A stretch of DNA of 64,000 bases, from the NCBI GenBank assembly GCA_000091205.1, contig AP006488.2; one strand, given 5' to 3'. Positions 13,854 through 55,793 of the stretch are shown here, in pieces; position 1 is the stretch's first letter; every line of letters begins with the position of its first letter. The notes under the pieces were generated by a model that did no database searches, had not been told where the DNA came from, and worked only from the letters and a program-made list of their open reading frames with translations. Made by a program: the position numbers and the translations under genes. This DNA is from Cyanidioschyzon merolae (taxonomy: Eukaryota).

Positions 13854-14130
13854 GATGGAAAAGATCGCACCGTACAGCGCCTTGCGTTCCGCGGGACGCT
13901 CCGGTGGCGTCACGTTGCACGTAAACGTCCCAACCTGTCACGCACAACTAGAGCACGTTACCCAAAAAAGTAGGCCAAGTAGATACGTCAAACAAACAAC
14001 TCCAAAAGCCTTCGAACCGGGAACTTTTCCTGTTCCCTGTGTCCAGAAGCGCTCAGAAGGCACTTACACCACGAAAAGCAACACGTTGTCTAGTGCACGG
14101 TGACACGCATTCCTCGAAGCACGCATGCCT

Positions 14131-14251
14131 GCCGTCGCTGCTGCTGCTGCGATCTAATGGACAGGTCCATTCGGGGCGTCGCTGCTGCTGCCGTCGCTGC
14201 TGCTGCCGTCGCTGCTGCTGCTGCGATCTGATGGACAGGTCGATTCGGGGC

Positions 14252-14298
<47 letters not shown>
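14131..14298. repeat. Tandem duplication of an approximately 50-bp unit plus a (GCT)14 triplet run
   Basis: The unit gccgtcgctgctgctgctgcgatct(a/g)atggacaggtc(c/g)attcggggcgtc occurs twice and is followed by gctgctgct... x14. It lies in the divergent MTO1-OGDH intergenic region. Confidence 0.8.
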
Positions 14299-19812: not shown

Positions 19813-19861
<49 letters not shown>

Positions 19862-21252
19862 GCACTGGCGCTTTCCGTATCGGATACAGCATCGGAAGCG
19901 TCTGCGCTTCCGCTCAGCGCGGGTACGGCCTCGTATGCGGTTGCCACGGAGCTGGGAAAGAGCTCCATGTGCTCAAAGCCATCTCCATAATCTCGCGGTG
20001 GACCGAACATGTCATCCTCGGGGAAGAGATGCCCTTCTTTCGCTGAGGTTCCGGGTACGAGTCCATGCAGGCCGACTTCGCCGGAGGCTATGTTTGTGCC
20101 GGCAGTTCGCCAGGCCTCGGCTGCGTCGTTCTCGAGTTGATGGAAGAGTCGCTGAAAATTTGGACACAAAGCTTTCTGACCGCGTTGTGTCCAAGCCAGC
20201 ATCGCGTTGGGAAACAGCTCGGCTGCTATCTCTATGTATGGATCCGCCGCCGTCTCATCCTGGTCATCAGGGTGTGATGCGTCCCCGACAGCTTCGGCAT
20301 GCTCTTCTGCATCCAGCGCCATCGTTCCGTCTGCGAGCAAATCCAGAACGCGCACAAGTAGCTCCTGTGATCCGCTCTGGTCAAACAGTTCGCTGAGTTT
20401 CATAAATAGTGGATCGATGGAGCATCCCTCCTCCAGACTCTGCAACGTGAGATGCTCGGGGTTGGACTCCAGCGTGGCTTCGCCCCAGCCGCACTTGACA
20501 AGTTTCGAACGCTGTCGCGAACGACTCGAGGGTGTGGCTTCGGCAGGCTCCTCATCACCAGCGACGGTTGCGCTGTCGGTGGCGGTCTCTTCGGGTGACT
20601 CGTCCTCGTCGGCAGCATGCTGTGCTAGCCCGTTGAGCACGCGATACGCGTTATTGTGCACAGAATCCACTCGGTACGCATATATTTTCACGCCTGCGTC
20701 GATGGTGGAGCCCGCAAGCGCAAAGTTCGTATCGAGCGCTTCACGTGTGAGGTCGTCCTGAACCGAATGACGGGGCGCCCGCCCTCGCTGAGCGTCATGC
20801 GAACCCTCTGAGCGAAACGCGACCGCAGCAATATGGTCGATGAGATTCAGTTGCCAGGAGTTCACCGCGTTGACGCGGTTCTCAGCACACAGACGGATCG
20901 TAGTCGCGTACAACTGCAAAAGCTCCGGATCCGAAAGCTTCTTGACGCTAGCGTCCGGCTCGGCAGCCGCCAAGAAACTCTCGTCTAGACCGCGGCGCGC
21001 CTGCGGTGAGCGTAAGCTCAACCCTGTTCTGAGCGTATTCTTCGATTGACGCGCGACTCGTGCTTGCTGCCTTTCTCGCGCGTCATCGTTCCAGCACAGG
21101 GAGTCCTCAAGTGCCAGAAACGAGCTCGAAGCCCGCTCAGTCGGTTGTGCTTCTCCGCTTGAAAGCGACGTTGGTGCACGGTGCTGGTGCTCCGGTTCCG
21201 ATGCTTCGGAACGTTGACTTTTATCTTGATGTTCTGCACGCCTGCCTCTCAT
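18541..21252 (-). CDS. NCAPH: Condensin complex subunit 2 (kleisin CAP-H/Barren/Brn1) with long low-complexity insertions
   Basis: The N-terminal kleisin motif is RLCAENRVNAVNSWQLNLIDHI...NFALAGSTIDAGVKIYAYRVDSVHNNAYRVLNGL, matching the Barren consensus N.INAKNAW.L.LID / NFQKAS.TLDASVKIYS.RVDSVH. The CDS is trimmed to the first ATG. The ORF overlaps the OGDH 3' end by 40 bp. Confidence 0.75.
19814..19854. repeat. (GCA)n triplet repeat inside the CAP-H coding region
   Basis: agcagcagc... x about 14. It translates on the minus strand to a poly-Ala run followed by an Asp/His-rich block (AAAAAAAAAAAAAAATHDDDDDHEDDHDDH). Confidence 0.8.
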
Positions 21253-27544: not shown

Positions 27545-28540
27545 TCAGCATACAGCACCGCTGCGTTTCTTGTGCCGTTGGTGGCGGTCCACAGGCGAGC
27601 GACGCGGTTCCGCATCCTTGGTGCCCTCTTTCGCATGAATGGTTCCCCAATTTTGCATATGAATGAGGTGGCGGGCTCCCGGTAAATCGTGCGTTCGCCG
27701 CAGCTCTTCCGCGTGTTCCTGTAGCGACTTGTTGCCGTGCAGCATCTTACCGAGGGCGGTGGCGGTATGCTCGCTTTCCGGTTTCTTTGTCGACGCCGTA
27801 TCGTCCACAGCCAGGCCCTGTCCAAATAGGTTCAACAGTCCAGCCATGGCGACTAAATGATCATATGCGGCCCGAATATCCTGGACCAGCATATCTGCCC
27901 GATCGCGGGTAAAACCGACCCGCACCACCACCCGCAGCAGTTTCTGGTGCTGCAGGTTCGGTGCCAGCGTATACGCGGGAACGATCCATCCACGTTTGCG
28001 TAACTCTCCCGCTATGGCAAACTCATCAAAACCCAGTTTCGTGCGCTGGTCATCTGGGATCGCAAACGCAACCAAGGGCAGGCTTTCGTTGTCACTAAGC
28101 AGGCGGAAACGCCCATCCTCCGTGATACGTGTTGCAAAGTACGAAGCCAATTCTTTCAGGGTGTGCATTAGATTCTGGTATCCCCGACGGCCTAAGCGCA
28201 ACAGCAAATAGTATGACGCCACAATCTGAGCGGAACCGCGTGAAAAGTTCAAGGTGAATGAGGCTTGGTCCGCGCCCAGGTAATTGACGTGAAAGACGAG
28301 CTCCTCCGGCAGATACGCAGCGCTGCGAAAAATGAGCCATCCGATGCCACAGGGCGCGAGACCGTACTTGTGCCCCGAAACATTGATAGAACGCACGTTC
28401 TTCAAACGAAAGTCCCACCTGAGATTGGGGTAACAAAACGGGGCTATGAAGCCTCCTGATGCTGCGTCTACATGGATACCGATATCAAAACCCTTCTGCT
28501 CGTTCATCTGCGTCACGAGAGCGTCCAAAGTGGCAATGTC
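27545..28540 (-). CDS. GAD: Glutamate decarboxylase, exon 2 (PLP-dependent, group II decarboxylase)
   Basis: DIATLDALVTQMNEQKGFDIGIHVDAASGGFIAPF, the PLP-lysine motif SINVSGHKYGLAPCGIGWLIFR, and YLGADQASFTLNFSRG are collinear with plant and fungal GAD. Confidence 0.88.
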   Translation of the reverse strand, partial: DIATLDALVTQMNEQKGFDIGIHVDAASGGFIAPFCYPNLRWDFRLKNVRSINVSGHKYGLAPCGIGWLIFRSAAYLPEELVFHVNYLGADQASFTLNFSRGSAQIVASYYLLLRLGRRGYQNLMHTLKELASYFATRITEDGRFRLLSDNESLPLVAFAIPDDQRTKLGFDEFAIAGELRKRGWIVPAYTLAPNLQHQKLLRVVVRVGFTRDRADMLVQDIRAAYDHLVAMAGLLNLFGQGLAVDDTASTKKPESEHTATALGKMLHGNKSLQEHAEELRRTHDLPGARHLIHMQNWGTIHAKEGTKDAEPRRSPVDRHQRHKKRSGAVC

Positions 28541-28625
28541 CTAGACTCGAATCGATTGTTTCGCAATGGTTAGTTTCATGTTCGGTTATTTCTGAGGAAA
28601 AGCCCCAGAAGTTTCGTCAACTTGC
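28541..28625 (-). other. Spliceosomal intron (85 nt) with GC-AG boundaries in the GAD gene
   Basis: Minus-strand donor GAA|GCAAGT, the canonical GC-AG donor context. The acceptor is tctag|GAC. Splicing joins ...TYTGQFE to DIATLDALV..., restoring collinearity with GAD homologs (plant EFEDVKLLNDLL). There is an in-frame stop in the unspliced read-through. Confidence 0.7.
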
Positions 28626-29315
28626 TTCAAATTGTCCGGTGTAGGTGGTACCTAGAATGCCGCAAATTCCGATGGTGTTCTCATCACAAAGCTCTATAGC
28701 TTTTTCCGGATTCATGACGTATACATCGTCGTGCAATGGTACGTAGCGTGGTTCCACATCAAAGTAAGCAGTCGCTTTCTCCCAGCAGACCTGCACTTCT
28801 GAACCCATCACCATGTTCGGGCGTGCGTAGTCCTTGCCGGCTGCCTTGCGAGCTGCTCGCCAACGCCACTTCATCGCGAGCACCGCCAGCATGATCGCCT
28901 CAGAGGAGCCTACAGTGCTGGTGCCAACAGCCTGCTGACCCTCCTCGAGAGGAGCATGAAAAAGGTTCGCTATGATATTGACGCAGCGGTTGTGGATCTC
29001 CACGGTTTGCGGATACTCGTCAAAGTCGATCCAGTTCACCGGAAGCATGCGATCACAGAGCTTGTGCGTCGTTTCATCAAAGCGCGTCGTCACAAAGGAT
29101 GCCAGGTTTAGTGCAGGGTTACCGTCTAGCTCCAGCTCCTGCGTAATGATACCTTCGGCAACAGCCGACGGCATCGGCTCGGCTCGCAACTGGTACTTGG
29201 GGAACTCCTCGAGCGCGAAGCTTGCAAAGCCGGTCTCGAAAGCCAGCGAGCTTGTGTCGATATGCTGAAAACGCTTCGCACCGCCTTTTTCAACGTTCGT
29301 CTTGTGTAGAGGCAT
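28626..29315 (-). CDS. GAD: Glutamate decarboxylase, exon 1
   Basis: ATG start. GNPALNLASFVTT, EYPQTVEIHNRCVNIIANLFHAP, VGTSTVGSSEAIMLA, VQVCWEKATAYFDVE and VMNPEKAIELCDENTIGICGILGTTYTGQFE match the GAD N-terminal half. Confidence 0.88.
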
Positions 29316-30917: not shown

Positions 30918-31220
30918 ATGACGGTGATGCTGATAGTGATGCTAATGGTGATGGTGATAGTGGTGTTGATGCTTATGCTGATAGTGATAGTGAGTGTGAT
31001 GGTGATAGTGATAGTGATGGTGATGGTGATGCTGATAGTGATGCTTATGCTGATAGTGACAGTGATGGTGATAGTGAGTGTGATGGTGATAGTGATAGTG
31101 ATAGTGATGGTGATGGTGATGGTGATGGTGATAGTGATGCTAATGGTGATGGTGATGGTGATGCTGATAGTGATAGTGATGGTGATGGTGATGGTGATGG
31201 TGATGGTGATGGTGGTGATG
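30918..31220. repeat. Minisatellite of (GTGATG/GTGATA/GTGATGCT) hexamer-class units, about 300 bp
   Basis: Direct reading shows gatggtgatagtgatagtgatgctgat... It generates the artefactual ITITIT, MVMV and SPSPSP ORFs on both strands (30839..31237, 30909..31244, 31045..31308). Confidence 0.85.
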
Positions 31221-31458
31221 CGGCGCGCCCGGCGCACGCTCTAATCAACATCCGCACCTGTGGCGAATGCGCGTCGCTGCACGCAGGGGCACGCCTCGGG
31301 TCACGCATAAGACACGTGTCGACGATCGGTACTGGGCTTGTCCGCTGAACAATGCACGCTCCTTGCGTCCGGTCCAGGTTTGGCAGAGGAGTGCCTTGAA
31401 CCTATTGGCTGGCGACTGGAAAAGTTTCTCATCGTCGTCTACGCACGAACGGCACCAT

Positions 31459-33609
31459 ATGAGCTCAGAAGAGAGTGGTGAGAGCGTCACGCATAAGGAT
31501 GGCGCCGAAGAGGATCCCCAAGAGCTGGACGACCCTGGTACCGTTGAGGCCTGTCATTCAAGGACCACCAAGATCCAGTACCGAAAGACTTTGCTCGATT
31601 CTCGACGTCGCAGCACGAGTCGATCCGGAGCACTCTCAAGGGAGATTTCGCGAGAAAATGTTCTAGAGGAAGCGCTTCCGTCACCGTCCGTCGACGCTTA
31701 CCGCTATGAACCCGAGCGCTTACAGGGCTGGCACCTATTCCTTCGCACTCTGCAGGCCGTAGGGCTCATCTACGGTGACCTAGGAACGTCACCACTGTAC
31801 ACCATCTCCAGCCTCTATGACGGCAACGTCGCGCCAAGCGAGTTCACCATCCTAGCCGGCGCTAGCATGATCTTTTGGCTCCTGCTCCTCATTCCTTCTA
31901 TCAAATACGCCTTCCTCGTGGCGATGGCGGATCACAACGGCGAAGGCGGTGCGCTCGCCATGATTGGACTGATGCGCCAGCGACGACTCTCTGGCCGCTG
32001 GGCTCGCCTCGCTGTCATTATAGCTGTGATTGGTGCAGGTGCCCTGGTAGCAGATGGAATCCTGACGCCTGCAATCACGGTGGTCAGTGCCTTTCAGGGT
32101 ATTCAGGTTGGGTCGCCTTCATTTCCTACCGGCGCCGTTGTCGGCTTGAGTATCGGTGTGCTTTTTCTCGTCTTTCTGGGCCAGTTTCTGGGCTCATCGC
32201 GCCTGGGAATCACCTACGGCCCCGTTCTGGTGGTTTTCTTCGTCGCGCAAGCCATGCTTGGCATGTACGGGATCACAAAGTATCCCGCGATTTTCAAAGC
32301 GCTGAATCCGTACTATGCTTTGAAAGGCATCGGCGTATACTGGAATGATGGCAAGGTGGGCTTCCTCAAGATTGCGGACGCGCTGCTCTGTGTGACTGGT
32401 TCAGAAGCGATGTATGCAGACATGGGGCATTTTGGGCGCCTGCCCATGCGCCTGGGCTGGTTCACGATCGTGCTGCCGTCGGTTCTGCTGTCGTATTTGG
32501 GCCAACTGGCATTACTTGCGTCCAATCCATCACTAGCTGAGACAGCGGGAAACGCTTTGTACTTTTACCAGGCGCCGCGCAGTGTCCTGTGGCCCCTGAT
32601 TGTGCTCACGACGTTGGCAGCAATCGTGGCCTCGCAGGCGATCATCAGCGGTGCGTTTTCGATCGTGAGCCAGGCGATTTCCTTGGACCTGCTACCACGG
32701 ATGCATATCAAACGCACTGACTGGCGCATTTATGGCCAAGTCTTTATTCCGGAGATGGATCTGGTCATGGGGATTCTAACAGTGGCTGTGACTGCGGGGT
32801 TTCAGACGAGTAACGCGCTGACCTCAGCGTACGGTGTGGCTGTCACGACGAGCTTCATCACAACAACATGTTTGTTCGTCATTGTGCTCGTGTTCGTTTG
32901 GAAACAGCGCTTCTACGTTTGGCTCAGCTACTTGGCGGTGTTTGGTTTGGTCGACCTCCTGCTCTGGTCGAGTGCCATTACAAAGTTTCCCACCGGCGGC
33001 TATATTCCAGTCATCATCTCTACCGTTTTCATTTTGGCCATGCTTCTCTGGGACTGGGGCACGAAACGAGAACACGAATACTACGAGCGAAAATTACGTG
33101 TTTGGAAAGCACAACAGAGCGAAGGAATTAGACAAGATTCATCGCCGGTGCTCAAGGGTACTTTTGTCTTTCTGGCTGGCTTGCAGCACGGCGTACCGTA
33201 CTCTTTCCAGGTTTTCGTGAGCAAAATTGGTGTGATTCCCCAAACCACCATCTTCGTAACGGTGCGAAACGTTCCAGTGCCGTTCGTCGATGATCATCGG
33301 CGGTTTGTGATTGTGGAGGAGGCACCGGGCCGCTTCCGCGCCCGTATCTACGTCGGGTATGCCCAGTCGATCAGGAGTCTTATGGAGTCTCTACGCGAGG
33401 TACCCGCTGCTTTCTTTCACGAAAGCTTTGGGGAGAAAGTGGTGTTCGTGAAGGGTTACACGGATATTCTCGTGGACTCGCAGCGTCACTGGCTGCACCG
33501 TTTGTTGGTCTACTGCTACCACTACCTGAAGACTATAGCTGCCTCGGTGGACTCGGAACTCGGCATCCCACGAGACCGAGTGGAAATCGGCATGCCGATC
33601 CTTCTTTGA
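31459..33609 (+). CDS. Potassium uptake transporter, KUP/HAK/KT family
   Basis: About 716 aa from the first ATG. Hallmark GDLGTSPLYTISSLY, multiple TM segments, GEGGALAMIGL, VTGSEAMYADMGHF. The C-terminal cytosolic domain is typical of HAK/KUP. Confidence 0.88.
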   Translation: MSSEESGESVTHKDGAEEDPQELDDPGTVEACHSRTTKIQYRKTLLDSRRRSTSRSGALSREISRENVLEEALPSPSVDAYRYEPERLQGWHLFLRTLQAVGLIYGDLGTSPLYTISSLYDGNVAPSEFTILAGASMIFWLLLLIPSIKYAFLVAMADHNGEGGALAMIGLMRQRRLSGRWARLAVIIAVIGAGALVADGILTPAITVVSAFQGIQVGSPSFPTGAVVGLSIGVLFLVFLGQFLGSSRLGITYGPVLVVFFVAQAMLGMYGITKYPAIFKALNPYYALKGIGVYWNDGKVGFLKIADALLCVTGSEAMYADMGHFGRLPMRLGWFTIVLPSVLLSYLGQLALLASNPSLAETAGNALYFYQAPRSVLWPLIVLTTLAAIVASQAIISGAFSIVSQAISLDLLPRMHIKRTDWRIYGQVFIPEMDLVMGILTVAVTAGFQTSNALTSAYGVAVTTSFITTTCLFVIVLVFVWKQRFYVWLSYLAVFGLVDLLLWSSAITKFPTGGYIPVIISTVFILAMLLWDWGTKREHEYYERKLRVWKAQQSEGIRQDSSPVLKGTFVFLAGLQHGVPYSFQVFVSKIGVIPQTTIFVTVRNVPVPFVDDHRRFVIVEEAPGRFRARIYVGYAQSIRSLMESLREVPAAFFHESFGEKVVFVKGYTDILVDSQRHWLHRLLVYCYHYLKTIAASVDSELGIPRDRVEIGMPILL

Positions 33610-44072: not shown

Positions 44073-44869
44073 CGCTTGACGCTCCGGGTCCCTGGCACTT
44101 ACGGCCTGGGTTCACTCGGAAACCACGAGTTTTTGAAGGCGCAGTCCTGCGCGCTACCGCCTACGTTGAAGCTGGAGGAGCGTTGCGCGTATGGATGTTT
44201 GGTGTCGCCAGACTGGTATCTATCCATACTGGCACACAGTTCGACAGGTGCTCTTCATCGGGTACACAAGCTAAAGTTTGGGTTTCTTCCAATTGTCGCA
44301 AACGCAGGCTATTACGAGCTTATTCTGCAACTGCATCCGTTCGCTTTCTCTTCTTGCTGGATTTACATTCGCCGGTCTCTCCTTCCGTCAAGATGCGATG
44401 TCGGCGGTCGAGGGTTATTGACGGCAACGTACAAGTGCTGATTACGTCGCTCATCGCCGTGGTCAAAGCATCTCATGCACAGACGAAAAGTCGCGATCAA
44501 CGCCTCGCTTGCCATTTCCATTGTCTTGTTCGTGCCCAGCGTTGGTGCGCTCTTCACTGCCGCGACACATGGCGGTGTGTTCAGATGCTGTAGCATATCG
44601 TGCATACCGCTTCAACGAATGGCCGTCCCGTGGCGCCTGAACGCTTGCTTCATCGTTCGGTACATGCTGGTGAAGATTGCTGAAGGCGCTCTACGATACG
44701 CACTTCCGTTTCCGTAACTGGTGGTGTACCCTACACGCACACGGGCTTGATGTGGGCGATGCCCTCGGCGAGTACGGCGTCCGCTGCAAGCGCACGCTCG
44801 TCTATTCGATCGAGGAGTTCTGAAACGCAATATTCTCCATGATAAAACACGCACCGGGAGCAAGTTCCG

Positions 44870-45560
44870 GACTCGAGAAGACGCCATAAGGCCTCAACCC
44901 GTGTTGGCAGCCTTCGTGCCAAGCGGTAACGCGCTGTCCACTGTAAGCGATCGCAGCGTTGCCTGAGGTCTGAGTTCAAGATTCTTTTCCATGCAAGTGG
45001 AACAAAAGGAAGCCTCTTGGTGAACAGCCCGTACGAGATATCATGCTGCTGCTGTTGAATGCAGTTTCATCGATGTCCGCGAAGCGGTTAGATTCTCTCT
45101 TTCGAATGGACTCCATTATTTGACATGAAAAGCCCGGTAAAATTTTGGCAGGTACTTGTGAACAAGCCGACAAGAGACGAGGTCGATTTTCTGTTCCATT
45201 TCAATCCAGTTGGATGCGTTGCTGCGCCAACGAGATGACTTGAAACACAATGTTCTAAAACTTCAAGCACGGGTGATTTGAGCATGCTACGAGTAAGGAC
45301 GGGAAACGAATGGAGGCTTCTGCGAAGGCGATGGATAATGATATCGGTTATTTTATGAACCCTTGTTGGAGGGTGTCGCGAACCATCTTGGTGACGATGG
45401 CGAAACGAATTTCAGCGTGGAGAGTCGACGGATCCACTCCAAAAACATAACCGAGAATACTAAAATTACACACGAATCCGCAAGCACTTGTTCCAGCACC
45501 TCGAGCGTCGAGGATGGACATGTGAAAAAATTCGAAAAAAATCGAAACGTTTCAGCCTTA
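44870..45560 (+). repeat. Dispersed repeat family, copy C (diverged)
   Basis: Shares gccttcgtgccaagcggtaacgcgctgtcc, gagatatcatgctgctgctgttgaatgcagtttcatcgatg, ttgagcatgctacgag, and gatatcggttattttatgaaccc...ggcgaaacgaatttcagcg with copies A, B and E. Confidence 0.5.
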
Positions 45561-48500
45561 TCAACCAGAAGGTGCAGTTGCCAATGATCAGCGGACGATT
45601 GCGCTCCGGACAGTGGCACAATCGACACCTGCACCACGTGGCCAAGTATCCGCATGTCGAAGGTGCGATTCCCAATACGTCTGCCTATGGACACTTCACC
45701 CATACTGGTCTGTGCGAACTCGAGCCCTGAGAGACCCGCACTCTGCCTATCTACATGGTCGCAACAATCGCCAAGAATAGGCTAGCGCCGCTCGTTCCAC
45801 TCAGAGCAGTGAATCCCGGAACATCTGTACCAGCAGGCGGTTTTTTGTCTAACAAAGAGAGTCTCTATGAAGGTTGGAGAATGGTCGCGGAAAGACTTTG
45901 TGTGCGCACTGCTAGCTTTGGAGAAATGGCCTCACTTGTGCAAATCAGCTATTCGTCGGTCAGCTAGTGAGTGATCCATCCCTCTGCTCGTTCATATCCC
46001 GAATGCAGTACACCAAAAACTGAACTTGCCAAACTCTAGGCCAACGACTCTTCCCTCGACAATCTATTCCAGTCCAAATGCTCGCACCGTAATGCCACCA
46101 AAGATGCAATTCCATGTAAACTTTCGGTAACGTTTCCTCGAGCGGAGCTGAAGAGACGCGGATGGATCAAGAAACAGGCACGCCTCAACAGGAGACCGCA
46201 CCATTTCGAACAATACACAACAGATTCTGTATAGAAATGCGAATACTTTTCGTGGAAGCGACGGGCGTTCATCTCGCATGATGACAAATTCATCGATGAC
46301 CAATGCGAGACTTGTATAGACGTTGCCGTAGAGGGGCAAGCCGCTGTTTGTGAAGAAGAGTCAAGCGAGCATTCCGACAACGTCAGTTCTCGCGACGATT
46401 CAATACTGTGGTCGCCCATGAATCGCAACACAGAAAGCAGCGCTCAGCACCTGATCCTCCGTTGAAACACGCCTCGAGTTCCATCTTTTCGTGTCCTTCT
46501 CCTGGGCAATATCTCTCAGTCCATCACTGATGTCGGTCGGGGGGCGGGGGCGCGGTTTGTAGCTGCTCTTCGTGCTAGCACACGCTCGCGGGTTCCATCC
46601 GCTTAAAGACGTCGTATAGGATTTCAAACGCCATTTTGATCTACCGGAAGAACAGACGAGTCGTACGTAACCGTGTTACAGAAGTTCTTCGACAAATCAC
46701 TCTTTGTGTTCACCAGAACCGAATCCATGCATTGATTCTCCGCTCATTGGCAGCTGAGAAGGGAAAGGTGCGCTCCGGTCTGGGAGCGGGCATGCGATGG
46801 CTAAGGCGACGAAAAAGCACTTGAGAAACAGTGCGTACATTCAAAGAGAAGACGAGTTTCAGGCACGTCGAGCGATCAGTGCGTCTGAGTGCCAAGAAAG
46901 AAAACGTATACAGCGTATCATGAAAAAATCCACGCTACCTAGCCGAGTAAGCGAAAAGGCAAAGATGTCGAAGCCGAAAGAGATGCAACCACACGTCAAA
47001 GCAGAGAAATAGCTTCCCTAAAAGATGACGAGTTCCGACGGGAACGGAGCACCTTCCGATCGGAAAGATCATTGTTGGACCGCTGTCAACGCCTCACCAA
47101 TAAATCATATCCATTGGGAGAATCCTTGAAGGCGTCAGGCACACGACGCCATTAGAGATCGCGTAGCTTCTTACGCGCACAAGTCTTGCCTATTTCGTCT
47201 TGTCTTGGTGCACCGCGCCACGCGACGCTTCGGTGGAGTTCCAGACACGGGCGGCAAGCTCTCGGCATTTCTCTGGATTTTTTTCGGATCAGACCTTCGT
47301 GCGAGAACACCACTTATGCTCCGGATAGAAGGCGCAACACGGCCTGTTCATAGGATTCCGGATGTACTCGCACGCTTCCCAGAATACCTTGACACATTAC
47401 CGCGCCACCTCGGCGATCTGAGGATCGACAACGCAGATGCCAGAAAGTACGGAACTACATTCAACATACCAAATTAGGTTCAGTGTCGAGCGCTTCACGA
47501 AACACCTCCCATGCGCATTGTATCCTCACGTCACATACGCGATAAAATACGGATGGATGGACGGGATGCTTAGCGGGTCGATGGAGGAAAATGACGAGCG
47601 ATTGGCGGCAAGAGATCGAGGTGGTAGCGAGTTCGGAACTGATGTGCCAGCGATAGGGAGTATCGCTTCAGGTAATCCAAGCTCGTCGTGTTGCCGTCAG
47701 CCTCGGGTCGGCGGATTTCGTACCGAAAAGGATCGTTGAGACGCAACGCCTACCTTGCTTGCATCTACGGTTCCATGTTTCGCTGAGCAGATCTTCCCAG
47801 AGCAGACCAGAGCAGATTCCATCAGACCGTCGCCTCGAATCCAAGCGCCGTAGCCTCCGAAATCGCCAAGTGGATGTGCTCCCAGCACCTCAGATGGAAG
47901 CCCAGTCGATCACCCGAGACGCTTCTGCTCTGTACTGTATCGCATCTTCAGTGAGCTACAGCTGGTCTGTCTGCGCGCAGCTATTCCGCATTCCACTATA
48001 GAGGCTAAGAGCATTGCAGAGCTCGTTCAAGGCTCCTCGTGTACGGAGAAGGAATGGAACGAATTCTACAGTGCCGATGGAGCTCGCTGGAATACAAATC
48101 CGCATGTACTTGTGAGATCGAGGCCCAAGTCAAGCGATGCGACTCGGTCTCAGCCAAAGAAGACATATCAAGAGAGAAACATCATGGTGGGCCCGGATCC
48201 CCAGGTCTGAGAATATCATGACGGTTGTCGTACCTCTGAATCGAGAGAACGTATCGAGGGATATGCAGGGAATGCAAACGAAGCTACTCAGCTTTTCCCG
48301 GGCTCGATTTCACCCAGGAATGGGCATGATGAATGCGAGAAGGCACACGAAAACTGGAAAGACGGCGTCAGGGACCAGACCCCGGTGCTCTGAGCACACT
48401 GTCCTGCAGACGAGGATGCTTTGTGTGCTGCATTCAGAGAGAACACGAGCGTCCAAATGGCGTATGTCGACGATCTCTGGCAGAAATACCTGCGGACGCA

Positions 48501-50076
48501 CGGGAATGGCCAACGATTTTCGGCGTACAGGGGCAGGACGCGAGTATTCAGCGACTTGTTTCATGAACAGGAAAAGAAATACGACGGATCGTTCGTCTCG
48601 TTGGGTGACGGTACCCTATGGCGCAAGACGTGCTGTGGCGCTCGTGGGCTGCACGCCTGCTCCTCTGACGAGAACGTAGAACGAGTGCAGGAAACGATTC
48701 TGTACGACGCCTGTCGATGAGTTACGGCCAACAGAGAAACGTCACGAGCACGAGTGCCCGTTGAAACAGCCAGAAACGAAGCGCTTGAAACAGAGCACGA
48801 TGGACGAGATGGGGTACGGCATGCCGAGCGGACGTCTGCTTACGAGGCAGTCAGATGCATGAGGCTCGCAATGTTGCGATACAGTCGCCAACAAGGTATG
48901 CAAGCGCTTTCTGTGCCAAGACTTGGACGCCTCAATCAACACCCGAAAAAGTCGAGTGCTTTCGGAGCGTCCTGCGGCTCTGTGTCAAGCGAAAATTCCT
49001 GGTAATCGTTTCGTATTCTTTGTCGGCATTGCGCTGAAATGCTGAAGACTCCGGATTGAAAAAACTCAGTGGCCAGGAGAGATGGCATTAGATTCTCGCC
49101 CGGAGCGAGGCACTGTTGTGGTCGAGCGCATCCATCGAGCGAGGTAGCAGCGTCGTATGTGTATACTGCGAACGTTTTACCTCGGCAGTGATGTCATGAT
49201 CATGGTGTTCCATTATTCGGCGTTACCAAGCATATGCGTCTCTTTACAGAGTCGTGAAATCCAATCCCTTGATCCTACTCCCAGCGGGACTTGCATGCCT
49301 AGTGGTCGGTTCGAAAACAGTCTCCCATGTCTCTTTGCGATCATGTCACAAGGATGAACCAATCTATGTGCAGGCGTTCATTCCGAAAGCAACAGTGTCG
49401 GTCCTTAGACGAATTTTCGAATCCGGTCGCCTCGTCCGATACAGCGCTGCGTATGCGCGACGATATTGATATCAGTGTTTGCATAAGAAAATCATATCAT
49501 TTCCACCACTTCCGGTTCAGGTATAAAACGTCGGTATGAGGAATCTGGTGCCCATCATCGCAAATGGTCGCGTAACGAGTTCCCGCCGACGACCTGAGGC
49601 ACAGTGCACGGGCCATGCTCCATCGGTGTCGCGTATTGCACCAGTTACGAGCACGAGAAAGCACTATCCTTCCATGACATGGTGGCAGTGCGCATGTGCC
49701 CGGGTCTGTTCTGACGCTTTCAGGGTCGCAACAGGAACGCAAGGCCCCGTCCCGTAATCCACCGACCGCAAAGCTGCCTTTGTTCCATAGTGGGAGCCTT
49801 ACAGGATCCAGTGCGTCCTGTCCGTGCCTCGGGGATATCTTGGAGCCGGACGGATCGGCCGTACCCGCAAGCGTCACAAAGCCAGCACGGAAACTGTACG
49901 AGGAATCCCATAGATTCTGCACCAGACCCGACACACTGGCATGAATCCGCTGACAGCATCAGTGTTCCCGAACAGCACAACAACGATCCGTTGGGTATTG
50001 TGTACCTCGACTGCACGGTTCACCTTGCAGCGAGCTCGCGCGTTTGTACCGAGTGTCTATCCGCTCGTCCCGCATC

Positions 50077-51864
50077 TCAATTGTTTGCCGAGTTCTCCGA
50101 AACTGCGTGCACCTCGGGGCGTACAAAGGGATACGCAAAATCGGGAAAGAACCATCCACGGCGTGCGTCCTCCTTGAACGGCCTTATAGGCACTGGCAGA
50201 CTTTGAACCGCCTCGCGCATCTCCCGCAACAGTTCGGAGACATCAGGACCTTCAAAGATGATTTCCGCGACCCAGTCCGGCATCCCATCCTCGGGGCCGG
50301 TGACCTTGGCACCGGCCTTCGCAAGGTAACGTTTCAAACGGCAGTGCGCGTACTTGTCAAGACCCTCGAGCCAATCGCTACGCTCCACAATACCTGAATA
50401 CGGAGCGTTAACGGCTGCCTGTGCGAAGCAGACGAGGGGCTCTGGCGGCATCCGCGGACGGATGGGAATTCCGAGCGCAGTCATGATGTGTTCTTCGACG
50501 AGATCAACGCCCCAGGTGCGCAAGTTTGCGTCACGAACGCACATACCTCCCATGCGGGCGTTGACTTCTATCAAACGCGGTCCTCTGGAGGTGTACTTCA
50601 CTTCAACGTGGAAGGCCCCATCTGTGAACCCCAGCGCTCGGAGTGTCTGCGATGCGAACGCTTTCAGCTCCGCCTGTTTTTCCTCCGGGTACAGCGAGGG
50701 AATGTTCATGCCAGTCTCCTGGAACCAAGGCTCCCAGCACGCCCAATTATCGGACAGGGAGGCGTAGACAACCTCACCCTTCGACATGAGCGCATCGACA
50801 TCGAATTCATCGCCATCGTAGAACTCTTCGAGCAGCAGATCCGTGCCCTGAGTCCAGATTGTATCAAGATGAACATCCATTGTCGCACGGATCGCCCGAA
50901 ATGTGTCGACCAGCTCATCTTGACTCGACACTTTATGCACGCCCATGGAGGCTGCGCCAAACGCAGGTTTCAGGATTGCCGGGAAGCCCACATGCTGACC
51001 CGCAGGCTCCAGATCCACCACATCGGTGATGCGGTAGCATTTGGGCGTCGCCAAACCATGTTGTCGCATGATTTCCCTGGTGACATACTTGTTCCGAGCT
51101 GCTTGGCAGGCGGCGCTCGGGTTTCCAGGCAAGTTCAGAGCTTCTGCCAAACGGGCAACCACGGCAACTGCGTCCTCATAAAATGTGGCCACAGCGTCAA
51201 ACGTTATTCCGGAATCAAGAATAGCATCGACTGCACGCTCAAAAAGGGTGTTGTAGTCTGTAAAATCCAATTCAATGTAGGACTCGATGACGTCCTCGTC
51301 GACGAGGCATTTCGCCCAGCTGTCAGGGCCATCCAGAATGCTAACTTTGACCCCAAGTTCCTTCAAATGTTCAAAGATAAATCGCTTACCACTGTATCCG
51401 GCCTGGAAAATGAGAACCTGTGCACCTCTGAGCAGCTTCCGCCGAATAGCCTGAGCTTCGGGTGTATCTCGCTCTAGGAGCTGCGGTTTGACGTGCGGAA
51501 AGTTACTGAATACTGGCGAGAAGTCCATCGGACTCGCCCCACTTCTGCCGAACTTCAGTCGACTGAGAAGAGAGGGAGAAAATGACTCGCCACTGCCCCG
51601 TGCGAGCACTGCTTTTGGCACCAGAAAGTTTGCCGATTGGAGTGAGCGTGCGAGCTCCTGGCCCTGGTCCTGCTGGCGGCCGCTGCGCGCACTCCCTGGT
51701 GCGTCCAAGCTGCCGCTGATCATAACCTCTAGCTCTGCGACGCCAGGTACCCGCTCGATCGCTGTCGACGGCAGCTTCCGCTTATTGAGCAAAAAGTCGA
51801 CACTGTCACCGGCACTGCCTACCGGCTCGCGATACTGCGCGAGAGACTCGGTGAAGGAGCTCAT
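50077..51864 (-). CDS. ATP-grasp domain amino-acid ligase (carnosine-synthase/CARNS1-like architecture)
   Basis: 595 aa from the first ATG (the track start is GTG). ATP-grasp blocks are FPAILKPAFGAASMGVHKVSS, LLLEEFYDGDEFDVDALMSKGEVVY and FHVEVKYTSRGPRLIEVNARMGGMCV. A pre-ATP-grasp N-domain of about 200 aa precedes them. The CARNS1 resemblance is from memory of the fold and order, not a database hit. Confidence 0.7.
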   Translation of the reverse strand: MSSFTESLAQYREPVGSAGDSVDFLLNKRKLPSTAIERVPGVAELEVMISGSLDAPGSARSGRQQDQGQELARSLQSANFLVPKAVLARGSGESFSPSLLSRLKFGRSGASPMDFSPVFSNFPHVKPQLLERDTPEAQAIRRKLLRGAQVLIFQAGYSGKRFIFEHLKELGVKVSILDGPDSWAKCLVDEDVIESYIELDFTDYNTLFERAVDAILDSGITFDAVATFYEDAVAVVARLAEALNLPGNPSAACQAARNKYVTREIMRQHGLATPKCYRITDVVDLEPAGQHVGFPAILKPAFGAASMGVHKVSSQDELVDTFRAIRATMDVHLDTIWTQGTDLLLEEFYDGDEFDVDALMSKGEVVYASLSDNWACWEPWFQETGMNIPSLYPEEKQAELKAFASQTLRALGFTDGAFHVEVKYTSRGPRLIEVNARMGGMCVRDANLRTWGVDLVEEHIMTALGIPIRPRMPPEPLVCFAQAAVNAPYSGIVERSDWLEGLDKYAHCRLKRYLAKAGAKVTGPEDGMPDWVAEIIFEGPDVSELLREMREAVQSLPVPIRPFKEDARRGWFFPDFAYPFVRPEVHAVSENSANN

Positions 51865-54377
51865 GAGCACGACTGTCACAATGTACTACTTTGAAGTGCT
51901 CCCCAATCCAGCCACTTTAGCCGTGCTATGTGCACTCCCAGGATCCGGGATCGTCTAAAGTGGACCGAATGCCCCTTGACGAAATATCCTGCACCCAAAA
52001 CTCTGCTCTGCGGTGCTGCGCAAATGTCAGCCGCAGAGGCTACGAGCAGGAAACTCGCTCCATCATCGCCGCCGCTGGTACGCAGGATCGACTCAGATTC
52101 GTCGATCAGTTCAACGGTTGCTTTCTGATCGCGGCGGCGGCGGGCGCACGAGCGGTCTACGTGCAACGCTGCGATCAGCGAGATGTGACGATGCGGTGCT
52201 GCAGCGCGTCACATCTGCTGCAGCATGCGCATCACCGGAGGACGCTGGCCTACGGAAACGTTTTGTCCATGAAAAAGATCTGCTGCTGCATCGGATTGCA
52301 GCAGCTATTGTCTTTCACCAGGATTCTGTTCCACATCCAGTAGCGTGGCATCAAATGCTTTTCCGCGGTTCATAGCAGATATGTTCGAAGTGTGTTTATT
52401 TGGAGAAACAAAAGATCCATGGCACAGGAATAGACGTGGATGTCGGGCATCCTGGAGCGCTGTCATCGATGATCGCCAGAATGAAACGGAAAAACCCTCT
52501 TTTCGCCGACTATGGAGCGAAGGAGAGGAAGAGCAACAAGGGGAGATGCACGAGAAGCGGTGCTTGCACAGCGGGACGGTGACTAAACTGTAGAGGCACA
52601 GAGCGCACGAGTTCAAGGAATCCTTGCATTGGTGCGTTCAACAGTGGCAAAAGACGCATGGAGTTCATCAACCGAGACTGTAACGCCGCTGTGAATATCA
52701 TACAATGAGTGGCGTTGTAGACGAGACCCGAGGAGCTAGCGAAATCTAATTTTATTCGGCAAACTCTCAGGCTCGAGAGGTGCCTTGATAAACTGAAACC
52801 GAAAGCAGGCGGTCGGTCGAAAAAGTTGGGAGACGCCTGCGTATGGGTATTCATTTACCCACCATGGTTGTGGGATATTTTTCGTTCTATCAACGATGTC
52901 TTTCTCGTCGATGGACCATGGGCAAGCGTGTTTAGCTCATCTGGAGGTTCGCGGTTGCACAGGCCCGACCGGAGCCCGAGTTAGGGGGCCTCTTCTCGCT
53001 GGCGGACACGTCTACATAGCACCCGACGAGCAACGTCTAGCGGATGAGAGTCGTTGCCTTTTGGTAGCGCACAGCGAGCGATAAGCAGAGGAAGGTGCCA
53101 GTTTTACGCATGGACCTGAAACGGTGCTCGCGCAATGCTCGGAAAAGCCTCACAGAATATCGGCAAGTGTTCGTTCGTTCATTCAGCGTTTGGAATTGAT
53201 GAGGCTCTGGATACCTGTGTCTCCCAGTGGTTTCCAGAGAGTCGGGGCATGTGTTGTGTTCTTTCCCAGCCGTGTCTTCATCCTCGCGGATTCTGCCGAG
53301 GGGCGCGCTTCACGTCGGAGCGCGGTAGCTTCCGCGCCATCCCGGGCAACACGGAATTCGTTCTGCTGCTGTGGTGCATTCGCCGCTGGAGTGTCGACCT
53401 GTTCGGCACTGTGTTTCTTTCGTGCCGCTCTGTCTCGAAACGCTGTGTCCTGTGCGAGTCGGCAGCCTCCATCGACGGAATGTTGAGGTCGACTCTCGAG
53501 CGACGCTTCACGCACGGTCGTGCACTTGAAAAAACACTTCATTAACGTTCGGCGAAGCATCATGCTCGCATGCAACTCGTGAATAACATTTTGCCAACGA
53601 GAAATATCTCAGCGGTTTGCCGAAAGTATTTCTCATTTCGAAACGCGGTGGAATTGAGTGCTGCAGCCAGCCATATTGAAGCGCTGTAATGGGAACGCGC
53701 TTTCAGAGGCACGTGCACGGGCAAGAGAGCCTCTTCGGTGCTCTACTTCTGGTCGAGCACCAAGAGCACGACACTTGAGCGATGTGACGGCGGACGGATG
53801 ACACCCGTTGCATCCGGCCACGGTAACGCTACTGGATAAAAGTAGTGGCATGATGTAGACAGAATATGGAATTACAGCATACCCACCGCCATAGTGAGAT
53901 GCGGGACGCTTAGTACGGAAAAGTTACGCATGTACTACTTCCTGTGCCACAAGCAGACTTTCTGTCAAGGTACGAAACGCTGCGTACCTACATCTTTCTC
54001 CTGGACGCGGCGAACGAGGTATCTGCAGATGCGAGCGCACGCACTTCCATTGCAGCCAGCACATTATCGTCCATATTTGCGCGATCTATCCAAAATGAAG
54101 GCAATCTTCGCTGTCGCGTGTCTGTACTGAGAGGCAAAGAGCAAAGCCCAATTCCTAGGCGAGCACGCTTCTGGTATTTATGACGGCGACGGCAATCGTT
54201 TTGCAGAGATACCGACTTACGCGGGGGTATATCCGACGCCGCGGGGAATGGTTTAGACGAAATCGCGTGTACAGCAGAAACGTATCGATATCCTGGACCA
54301 CAGGCATTTGGGTGTGACAGCTGCTGCTGCTGCCGAGTCCAAAACGCCGCTATGTTGCAGTGAGGCTCCCAGCCACC

Positions 54378-55793
54378 TCATGAGGTCACAGGCGGCAACC
54401 TGTTTTTCCCGTGGATGAAAAAGCAGTATGGATGACGATACCGATACTCATGCCAGCGATACGGTTCGTTTCCGAGATTGTGAATAAACTCGATCTGGGC
54501 AAAATACTGCAGTCGAAATGATCGATCCCAGAACTCCTCTGTGCTGGCAAAAAGCTGCCGATCAATCGCAACATCAAACGCCGCAGAGCGGTGACGATTC
54601 CAGACTCGCCACAGCCATCGACAGAAATCCAAGTCACCTACTCGATAGAGCGCATTTCCGTTCATCTGCGTTCGATGCGCATCTTGGTGGTACTGCAGTC
54701 GCCAGGAGATGCGTGCATCCAGGTTGGTGCTTCGCAGCGGAGAGCCCAGCATCCACAGACGACGAGCATCCGCGAGCGCTACGATCCGACGAAGCGCATC
54801 ATTGTACTGCGCTTGCACCGCATTGCAGTCTGGTTCGCACCAAAACAAGTATCGTACTCGGGGTAGACTCGTGGACTCATGTGGACCACTAAAGATGCTT
54901 CGCTGCGATGACTGTCGCCCCAGGGACAATCGATGGAAGCGCAGCGCCCTGTGTTCCGTGTTCATCCAGGGCTCTGCGGAGCGTTCAGCCGGCTTGCCGC
55001 CAGCGGCGGCCAGGCTCAGAGCAAACACCAAAGGATAGAACATACTGCCGGTGCCTGCAGAGTCACGTTCGGAAAGCCATGAGCTAGGCCTGTAACGATC
55101 AGCAGTGCTGTCCAGACGCGCCTCGATGAGGTACACACCATGATCCAAACAGGAAGGCCATGTTGGAGCTGTCGCTTTTCGGAGCGCGTCGACGACACGA
55201 AGGTAGAGGTCGCTATCCCAGATTGTGTTGATATAAAACGCCAACACTGTTTGACTCGAAGTGCGCTCTGCAGTCTCTACCGGGCAAGCTAGTGGAAGAT
55301 TCCAGTGAATCCACCGCTCAACTGCCTCGAATTGATGTTTTGCAAACGGCACAACAATCACTTGCCCACGGGCATGCGTCTGCCGCATCGACGACGACCT
55401 ATCCATCGAAGATCGCTTCATGGAATCAGGAATATCCTCGCTTACTCTCCGATGCAGAATGTGTTGAGGCGTTAGAAGAGTCCATGGAAAGCTCTCGTTG
55501 AACCAGGCGTTACCAGGTGCTACCATGAACGCGTTTCGGGGCGTTGCGGCGTTCCATGGACTGCTCCCGTTATACCATGCAGTCGCAGTCGCCGGTCCCT
55601 CGCTGCCGCTAGACTGCAGAACGGCATATGGTGATAGGAGACGCACCATACCCCACTGCTTATCGCGCTGGTCAAGGTTTCGGTTCTCTATACCCGCCAA
55701 GTCGTGCGTGAACAACCCCGCGCGGTGAAAGAAAAGGATTCGCGTCAGCAATATCTTACACAGTTGTAAGAAAACACGCCAGCAGCGCTTCAT
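54378..55793 (-). CDS. Hypothetical protein (471 aa), possibly a secretory-pathway or glycosyltransferase-like protein
   Basis: Uninterrupted ATG-initiated ORF with an N-terminal hydrophobic segment and an internal hydrophobic stretch MFYPLVFALSLAAAGG. It has a Trp/Arg-rich C-terminal region (WMLGSPL...FCRWLWRVWNRH...YRWHEYRYRHPYCFFIHGKN). I recognise no family. Confidence 0.35.
   Translation of the reverse strand: MKRCWRVFLQLCKILLTRILFFHRAGLFTHDLAGIENRNLDQRDKQWGMVRLLSPYAVLQSSGSEGPATATAWYNGSSPWNAATPRNAFMVAPGNAWFNESFPWTLLTPQHILHRRVSEDIPDSMKRSSMDRSSSMRQTHARGQVIVVPFAKHQFEAVERWIHWNLPLACPVETAERTSSQTVLAFYINTIWDSDLYLRVVDALRKATAPTWPSCLDHGVYLIEARLDSTADRYRPSSWLSERDSAGTGSMFYPLVFALSLAAAGGKPAERSAEPWMNTEHRALRFHRLSLGRQSSQRSIFSGPHESTSLPRVRYLFWCEPDCNAVQAQYNDALRRIVALADARRLWMLGSPLRSTNLDARISWRLQYHQDAHRTQMNGNALYRVGDLDFCRWLWRVWNRHRSAAFDVAIDRQLFASTEEFWDRSFRLQYFAQIEFIHNLGNEPYRWHEYRYRHPYCFFIHGKNRLPPVTS

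Follow-up and report, generated by a model that had tools for sequence, protein, structure and literature searches.

A putative algal subfamily of L-amino-acid-ligase-type ATP-grasp enzymes, represented by a conserved hypothetical protein of Cyanidioschyzon merolae

Several ATP-grasp enzymes that join amino acids into dipeptides have been described. BL00235 from Bacillus licheniformis forms Met-Gly and Met-Met. BacD (YwfE) and RizA are members of bacterial antibiotic biosynthesis clusters, and RizA makes arginyl dipeptides. In BacD, Trp332 lines the substrate pocket and restricts the size of the N-terminal substrate. To our knowledge, vertebrate carnosine synthase (CARNS1/ATPGD1, EC 6.3.2.11) is the sole characterised eukaryotic member of this superfamily. 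Here we describe a protein of the red alga Cyanidioschyzon merolae that, judged from its sequence and structure model, is a stand-alone ATP-grasp enzyme of the L-amino-acid-ligase (BL00235/CARNS1) superfamily. Its gene lies in a stretch of 64,000 nucleotides of contig AP006488.2, referred to below as the window. An earlier sequence-only reading had likened the protein to carnosine synthase and had proposed that it shares a dipeptide route with a glutamate decarboxylase encoded in the same window. We favour, with a probability of about 0.75, the reading that the protein is a catalytically competent small-molecule amide ligase in a distinct algal subfamily, and that its proximity to the decarboxylase is coincidental and does not reflect a gene cluster.

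The ligase gene, its domains and its place in the superfamily

The uninterrupted open reading frame runs from 50077 to 51879 on the minus strand, which makes 600 codons if counted from a GTG. Translation from the ATG at 51864 yields 595 aa, and we take this ATG as the start codon because the resulting N-terminus, MSSFTES, is conserved across four Cyanidiales orthologues. The product is identical to C. merolae 10D XP_005535745.1 / BAM79459.1 (UniProt M1V741), for which the existing annotation is "hypothetical protein, conserved". The C. merolae genome is a compact, almost intron-free red-algal genome with a GC content of about 55%. Scans of the window for Rfam families and tRNAs found nothing. 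The features of the ligase gene are as follows.

50077..51864, minus strand: ATP-grasp ligase, complete CDS (595 aa plus stop codon at 50077-50079)
51442..51864, minus strand: N-terminal extension, aa 1-141 (alignment, structure model)
51115..51441, minus strand: pre-ATP-grasp (Rossmann-like) N-domain, aa 142-250 (PF18130 ATPgrasp_N match)
50455..51114, minus strand: ATP-grasp central and C-terminal catalytic domains, aa 251-470 (Pfam, alignment)
50179..50454, minus strand: LAL_C2-like C-terminal domain, aa 471-562 (weak Pfam match, structural match to BL00235)
50080..50178, minus strand: C-terminal tail, aa 563-595 (alignment)

In Pfam, ATP-grasp_4 (PF13535) matches residues 293-444 (E 7.5e-25, 88 bits against a cut-off of 27) and ATPgrasp_N (PF18130) matches residues 165-247 (E 1.2e-10, 42 bits against a cut-off of 27). 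The LAL_C2 match at residues 487-556 is weak (E 0.075, 13.7 bits) and becomes clear in close relatives of the protein. The order of PF18130, ATP-grasp fold and LAL C-terminal domain is that of the BL00235/CARNS1 type. A pre-ATP-grasp domain had been expected from the sequence over about 200 aa; it is present, but it occupies only aa 142-250, and aa 1-141 are a lineage-specific extension. The top NCBIfam matches are all ATP-grasp amino-acid ligases, namely the ATP-grasp half of PRK02186, DdaF and BacD, with scores far under the family cut-offs.

Among PDB entries, BL00235 (3vot) is the best match by sequence, aligning with query residues 161-521 at E 4e-33. BacD ranks next (E 2e-17), and much weaker matches are given by Ddl, PurK/PurT, biotin carboxylase and cyanophycin synthetase. 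When the structure model is compared with the PDB by Foldseek, 3vot is again the top match (E 1e-29, TM 0.83 on the target, 435 columns), and the next ranks are taken by a PurD-annotated protein and then by YwfE/BacD and RizA. The best PDB matches by sequence and by Foldseek are L-amino-acid ligases, and the protein is accordingly assigned to that class. The sequence-only reading is therefore upheld in describing a 595-aa protein of the ATP-grasp amino-acid-ligase type: the frame is intact, both PF18130 and PF13535 are present, and the closest characterised relatives are BL00235 and CARNS1, which share the PF18130 domain, rather than Ddl, RimK or glutathione synthetase.

In an alignment of 90 homologues, K259, R263, K299-P300 (within ILKP), E346/E347, E383, H419, E421, E433-x-N435, R437 and G439-G440 (the RxGG motif) are invariant or nearly so. 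Among them, the ATP-, Mg2+- and acyl-phosphate-binding residues K299, E346/E347, H419, E421, E433, N435, R437 and G439/G440 align with those of BL00235 and BacD. The AlphaFold2 model built on the same alignment has a mean pLDDT of 86 and a pTM of 0.88, with pLDDT above 90 for residues ~130-580 and low to moderate confidence for residues 1-125. The C. merolae annotation, which says just hypothetical protein, would leave room for an inactive relic or a pseudo-enzyme with a non-catalytic role, and we found nothing specific in favour of it. Given the near invariance of the ATP-grasp catalytic residues and the high confidence of the predicted fold, we regard such a relic as very improbable.

Most of aa 1-141 is of low confidence or disordered in the model. 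Nevertheless, this extension contains the motifs DFxLNxRxxPxxxVERxP, SLRxANF and SPVFxxxPxxKP, which are conserved in red algae and partly in green algae, and the tail (aa 563-595) carries a red-alga-specific motif, (W/F)FFPxxxxPF. A transit peptide was considered for the N-terminus, but the conservation of its outermost residues and of several motifs led us to reject it. The N-terminal extension probably serves in regulation or interaction and may be controlled by phosphorylation, and the protein is probably cytosolic.

Relation to vertebrate carnosine synthase

One alternative is that the protein is a true synthase of the carnosine or homocarnosine type, which would join beta-alanine or GABA to histidine or another basic amino acid, with the nearby glutamate decarboxylase as the source of the GABA. 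CARNS1 is marginally the top-scoring characterised relative (143-183 bits in blastp, versus 134 for BL00235), it has the PF18130 N-domain in common with the algal protein, and several algal orthologues have already been named 'carnosine synthase 1' by automatic annotation pipelines. To evaluate the relationship, the database was probed with a CARNS1 sequence, and only the retrieved proteins named as such by their source, 120 vertebrate carnosine synthases, were used as evidence.

Several observations speak against a specific kinship. First, the similarity is low and is confined to the core: for ten vertebrate species, CARNS1 aligns with residues 142-476 at 29-32% identity (E about 8e-39 to 5e-52), which barely exceeds the 29% identity to BL00235, and no alignment is detectable past residue ~476. 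Second, CARNS1 bears an extra N-terminal region of 375-510 aa that has no counterpart in the algal protein. A profile made from 18 of these regions gave only negative scores (E >1) against 19 algal and bacterial homologues, and a profile of the red-algal N-terminal extension did not match CARNS1; the two N-terminal segments are unrelated. Third, when 1.84 billion representatives of clusters at 50% identity were searched exhaustively, 373 of them were found at E 1e-30 or better, and the 150th-ranked representative scored 178 bits, above the highest phmmer score of any CARNS1 (172 bits). At least 150 clusters are therefore nearer to the algal protein than any carnosine synthase.

The residue equivalent to BacD Trp332 also differs: C. 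merolae has Met at this position, and the other red algae have either Val or Met. Green algae and bacteria have Gly, CARNS1 has Phe and BL00235 has Ser. This variation suggests that substrate specificities may differ even between members of the family. The PDB contains no CARNS1 structure on which the pocket could be mapped. CARNS1 itself is reported to accept Lys, Orn and Arg (PMC6920838).

In a bootstrapped neighbor-joining tree of 108 core sequences, the Cyanidiales (100%) and the red algae as a whole (98%) are monophyletic, and BL00235 falls outside the entire algal/CARNS1 radiation (72%). Within the radiation, CARNS1 forms a long branch in another place and the algal clade is not its sister, although the deep nodes have a support of 6-39%, so that the tree is weak negative evidence. 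Orthology to CARNS1 is not supported by these comparisons. Because CARNS1 matches the core alone, its own N-terminal region is absent and at least 150 clusters score higher, the algal protein appears to represent a separate subfamily of the same superfamily. Of the likeness to carnosine synthase proposed earlier, the common core and PF18130 domain stand, and the specific kinship does not.

The glutamate decarboxylase and its distance from the ligase

The second gene of the proposed route is located as follows.

27545..29315, minus strand: PLP decarboxylase (glutamate decarboxylase), two ORFs joined over an intron

Its two open reading frames lie on the minus strand at 28617..29315 (232 aa) and 27545..28528 (327 aa), and the protein is full-length only once an 85-nt intron (28625..28541) is spliced out to join them. 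This intron is of the GC-AG type, with a GCAAGT donor, an ACTAAC branch site and a TAG acceptor, and it separates exons at 29315..28626 and 28540..27545. The joined protein of 561 aa scores 593 bits on the TIGR01788 glutamate decarboxylase model (cut-off 380), and its nearest solved relative is Arabidopsis GAD1. Its score on the PanP aspartate-decarboxylase model is far under the cut-off of that model. By these scores it is a genuine GABA-forming glutamate decarboxylase, and the earlier statement that such an enzyme is encoded about 21 kb from the ligase is correct, the distance being 21.5 kb.

The presence of a genuine glutamate decarboxylase at this distance is a further point in favour of the carnosine alternative. 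However, the two genes are not adjacent. They are separated by five unrelated, mostly housekeeping-type genes, encoding a K+ transporter, a DHHC palmitoyltransferase, a DnaJ protein, a proteasomal AAA ATPase and a Methyltransf_8 protein. Moreover, the 10-kb flanks of the orthologue contain no PLP decarboxylase in Cyanidium caldarium, Galdieria partita and Porphyridium purpureum. Such flanks would not reach a decarboxylase about 20 kb away, and conserved linkage is thus not seen within this range. In Cyanidium caldarium, the ligase-methyltransferase-AAA-DnaJ block is retained and is then followed by other genes, so that the gene order on the decarboxylase side differs. Judged from gene order, the proximity of ligase and decarboxylase in C. 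merolae appears to be coincidental, and the ligase would therefore not belong to a gene cluster for GABA or beta-alanine. The route shared by the two enzymes in the sequence-only reading, which itself presented the linkage as an inference, is not borne out, and we see no support for a link of the ligase to GABA metabolism. A literature search found no relevant connection between carnosine and Cyanidioschyzon. Taken together with the sequence comparisons above, this makes a true carnosine-type synthase unlikely.

Distribution, gene context and probable function of the subfamily

Ligase orthologues are present in all sampled red-algal classes. Homologues with 45-83% identity were found in Cyanidium and Galdieria, in Porphyridium, Erythrolobus, Timspurckia, Rhodosorus, Purpureofilum, Compsopogon and Hildenbrandia, and in Chondrus, Gracilariopsis, Agarophyton and Pyropia/Porphyra. 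At 39-45% identity they extend to the green algae Chlamydomonas, Pleodorina, Monoraphidium, Ulva, Botryococcus, Trebouxia, Myrmecia and Picochlorum, and in the same range to bacteria, for example an Anaerolineales MAG. Ligases of this type had been thought unusual in protist genomes; on the contrary, the family occurs throughout the red algae and in many green algae. The subfamily has probably been retained from an early stage in the evolution of both groups. A recent horizontal origin, for which a phylogenetic test had been proposed, is unlikely because the sequences are monophyletic across all sampled red-algal classes, and we reject it.

Many of the homologues are derived from transcriptomes (MMETSP). 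In addition, Cre13.g582800, the homologue in Chlamydomonas, is a phosphoprotein, and one of its sites drops by a factor of five or more when TOR is inhibited (bioRxiv 10.1101/310102). Since homologues occur in transcriptomes and one of them is a phosphoprotein, the ligase family is expressed, judging from other algae. It is possibly also nutrient-regulated.

A literature search for a characterised algal homologue, by gene and accession names, found no characterised algal or bacterial member of the subfamily. The ATP-grasp protein in PMC7826186 was considered and set aside as MysC-like and unrelated to the ligase.

The gene context of the bacterial relatives may provide some clues regarding the substrate. 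In three independent contigs of the closest bacterial relatives, the ligase gene is followed by a gene for an MFS transporter with a cyclic-nucleotide-binding domain, and in two of the three, STAS or anti-sigma partner-switch genes come before it. The partners can also be fused, as MFS-cNMP-ligase in P0273 and as STAS-ligase in P0100. The MFS-cNMP context fits a small, transported substrate or product. No MFS-cNMP transporter or STAS/anti-sigma neighbour of the ligase was found in the C. merolae window. Domain fusions in large relatives (MFS, cNMP-binding, Trp-dioxygenase-like and tandem ligase duplications) were also considered as a clue to the substrate and were too heterogeneous to name one.

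This context bears on another possibility, that the protein modifies proteins or peptides or forms a polymer, either as a RimK/TTL-like enzyme or by oligomerising its substrate like plu1440 or cyanophycin synthetase. Such activities do exist among ATP-grasp enzymes, the ligase has weak matches to the RimK and cyanophycin-synthetase families, and the conserved linear motifs at its N- and C-termini could serve as docking sites. However, the RimK match (E 0.011) is below the cut-off, the cyanophycin-synthetase match reaches 27-30 bits against a cut-off of ~850, and both are far worse than those to L-amino-acid ligases. A C-terminal domain of the LAL_C2 type is characteristic of L-amino-acid ligases that act on small molecules, and the MFS transporter beside the bacterial relatives fits a small-molecule substrate or product. 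We therefore consider a modifying or polymer-forming activity to be quite improbable.

By analogy with the characterised relatives, the most likely function of the small-molecule ligase is the ATP-dependent, ADP-forming synthesis of a dipeptide-like amide, with amino acids as the probable substrates; the dipeptide chemistry is an extrapolation from relatives at about 30% identity. Mg-ATP would be bound between the central and C-terminal domains, and the carboxylate of a first small substrate would be phosphorylated to an acyl-phosphate. Attack on this intermediate by the amine of a second substrate would then yield an amide (a dipeptide or pseudo-dipeptide), ADP and phosphate.

More speculatively, the algal subfamily could be the synthetase of a nitrogen-rich or signalling dipeptide. 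L-Citrullinyl-L-arginine is a red-algal nitrogen-storage dipeptide and may be named as a candidate; CARNS1 takes basic amino acids and RizA makes arginyl products. TOR-dependent phosphorylation of the N-terminal extension is hinted at by the Chlamydomonas homologue, and transport of the product by the bacterial operons of ligase and MFS/cNMP transporter. As a whole, a citrullinylarginine-type synthetase with possible TOR-dependent control through the N-terminal extension is a long shot.

If the ligase is characterised, a protein conserved across red and many green algae will gain a role, and the L-amino-acid-ligase/CARNS1 superfamily a second eukaryotic branch, possibly together with an algal dipeptide metabolite that serves in storage, buffering or signalling. 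The genetic tractability of C. merolae makes the function of the ligase open to direct tests.

In comparison with the known systems, the ligase is an ordinary, uncharacterised enzyme gene and a new member of a known enzyme type. With BL00235 it shares the layout of a three-domain ATP-grasp fold and a C-terminal LAL domain, as well as the catalytic motifs, but the identity is just 25-29%, and BL00235 has neither the N-terminal extension of 141 aa nor the C-terminal tail of the red-algal proteins. In the pocket, Pro85 of BL00235 corresponds to Asp231 of the algal protein, and the loop after the RxGG motif also differs. BacD/YwfE and RizA have the same fold and mechanism class (Foldseek E 6e-26 to 2e-25) at 18-27% identity. 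Much nearer than any characterised enzyme are the Anaerolineales-type ligases (P0105, P0086 and P0089) from the STAS / ligase / MFS-cNMP transporter operons, with 43-45% identity across the entire core and its LAL_C2-like domain. Finally, CARNS1 is a member of the same superfamily with an N-terminal region of its own, and it can reasonably be viewed as a functional analogue of the algal ligase.

Gene neighbourhoods and fusions among ligase relatives

Three bacterial loci carry the bacterial proteins most closely related to the 595-aa ATP-grasp ligase:
L001, 4359-8830
L002, 1-3504
L003, 1185-6972
Around these relatives there is a recurring module, in which the ligase is followed by an MFS transporter that includes a cNMP-binding domain (3 of 3 loci). 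STAS/anti-sigma partner-switch genes lie upstream of the ligase in L001 and L003, and other regulator genes are found near the module, of the cyclase/AAA/TPR kind in L001 and the GAF/TPR kind in L002. Parts of the module also occur as single fused proteins, namely MFS-cNMP-ligase (P0273) and STAS-ligase (P0100). We found no published description of a STAS/anti-sigma, ligase and MFS/cNMP module. In two metagenomic relatives, P0005 (999 aa) and P0046 (802 aa), the whole ligase is present in two tandem copies within a single polypeptide; in the tree, both are positioned closest to the green-algal group.

The glutamate decarboxylase intron and repeats in the window

27545-29315, minus strand, glutamate decarboxylase gene with one intron (28541-28625)
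14129-14298, trinucleotide arrays (GCT/AGC) together with a tandem repeat of 74 bp
19813-19864, AGC trinucleotide array inside a long ORF
30919-31214, hexanucleotide microsatellite TGATGG, about 49 copies with 81% matches

C. merolae has few introns. The 85-nt intron of the glutamate decarboxylase gene has a donor of the non-canonical GC type (GCAAGT), the branch site ACTAAC and the acceptor TAG, and the full-length enzyme is obtained only from the spliced product (TIGR01788, 593 bits). The TGATGG microsatellite is located just upstream of a K+ transporter gene (31267-33609).

Flanks of the ligase gene compared with Cyanidium caldarium

44600-50076, ORF-poor stretch (about 5.4 kb) immediately 3' of the ligase gene
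54378-55793, minus strand, 471-aa ORF neighbouring the ligase

Within the ORF-poor stretch, which is unusually long compared with typical C. merolae intergenic spacing, all ORFs are 180 aa or shorter, and Rfam and tRNA scans gave no match. The equivalent gap in an 83%-identical relative is also ORF-poor, but shorter (about 2.7 kb). In the red alga Cyanidium caldarium, the corresponding position is occupied by a 382-aa gene, of which tblastn detected no trace in the window. The 471-aa ORF has no match in a Pfam search. Its counterpart is kept in Cyanidium caldarium (35% identity), where it lies beside an HSP70-like gene; therefore, the 471-aa ORF is a conserved Cyanidiales gene.
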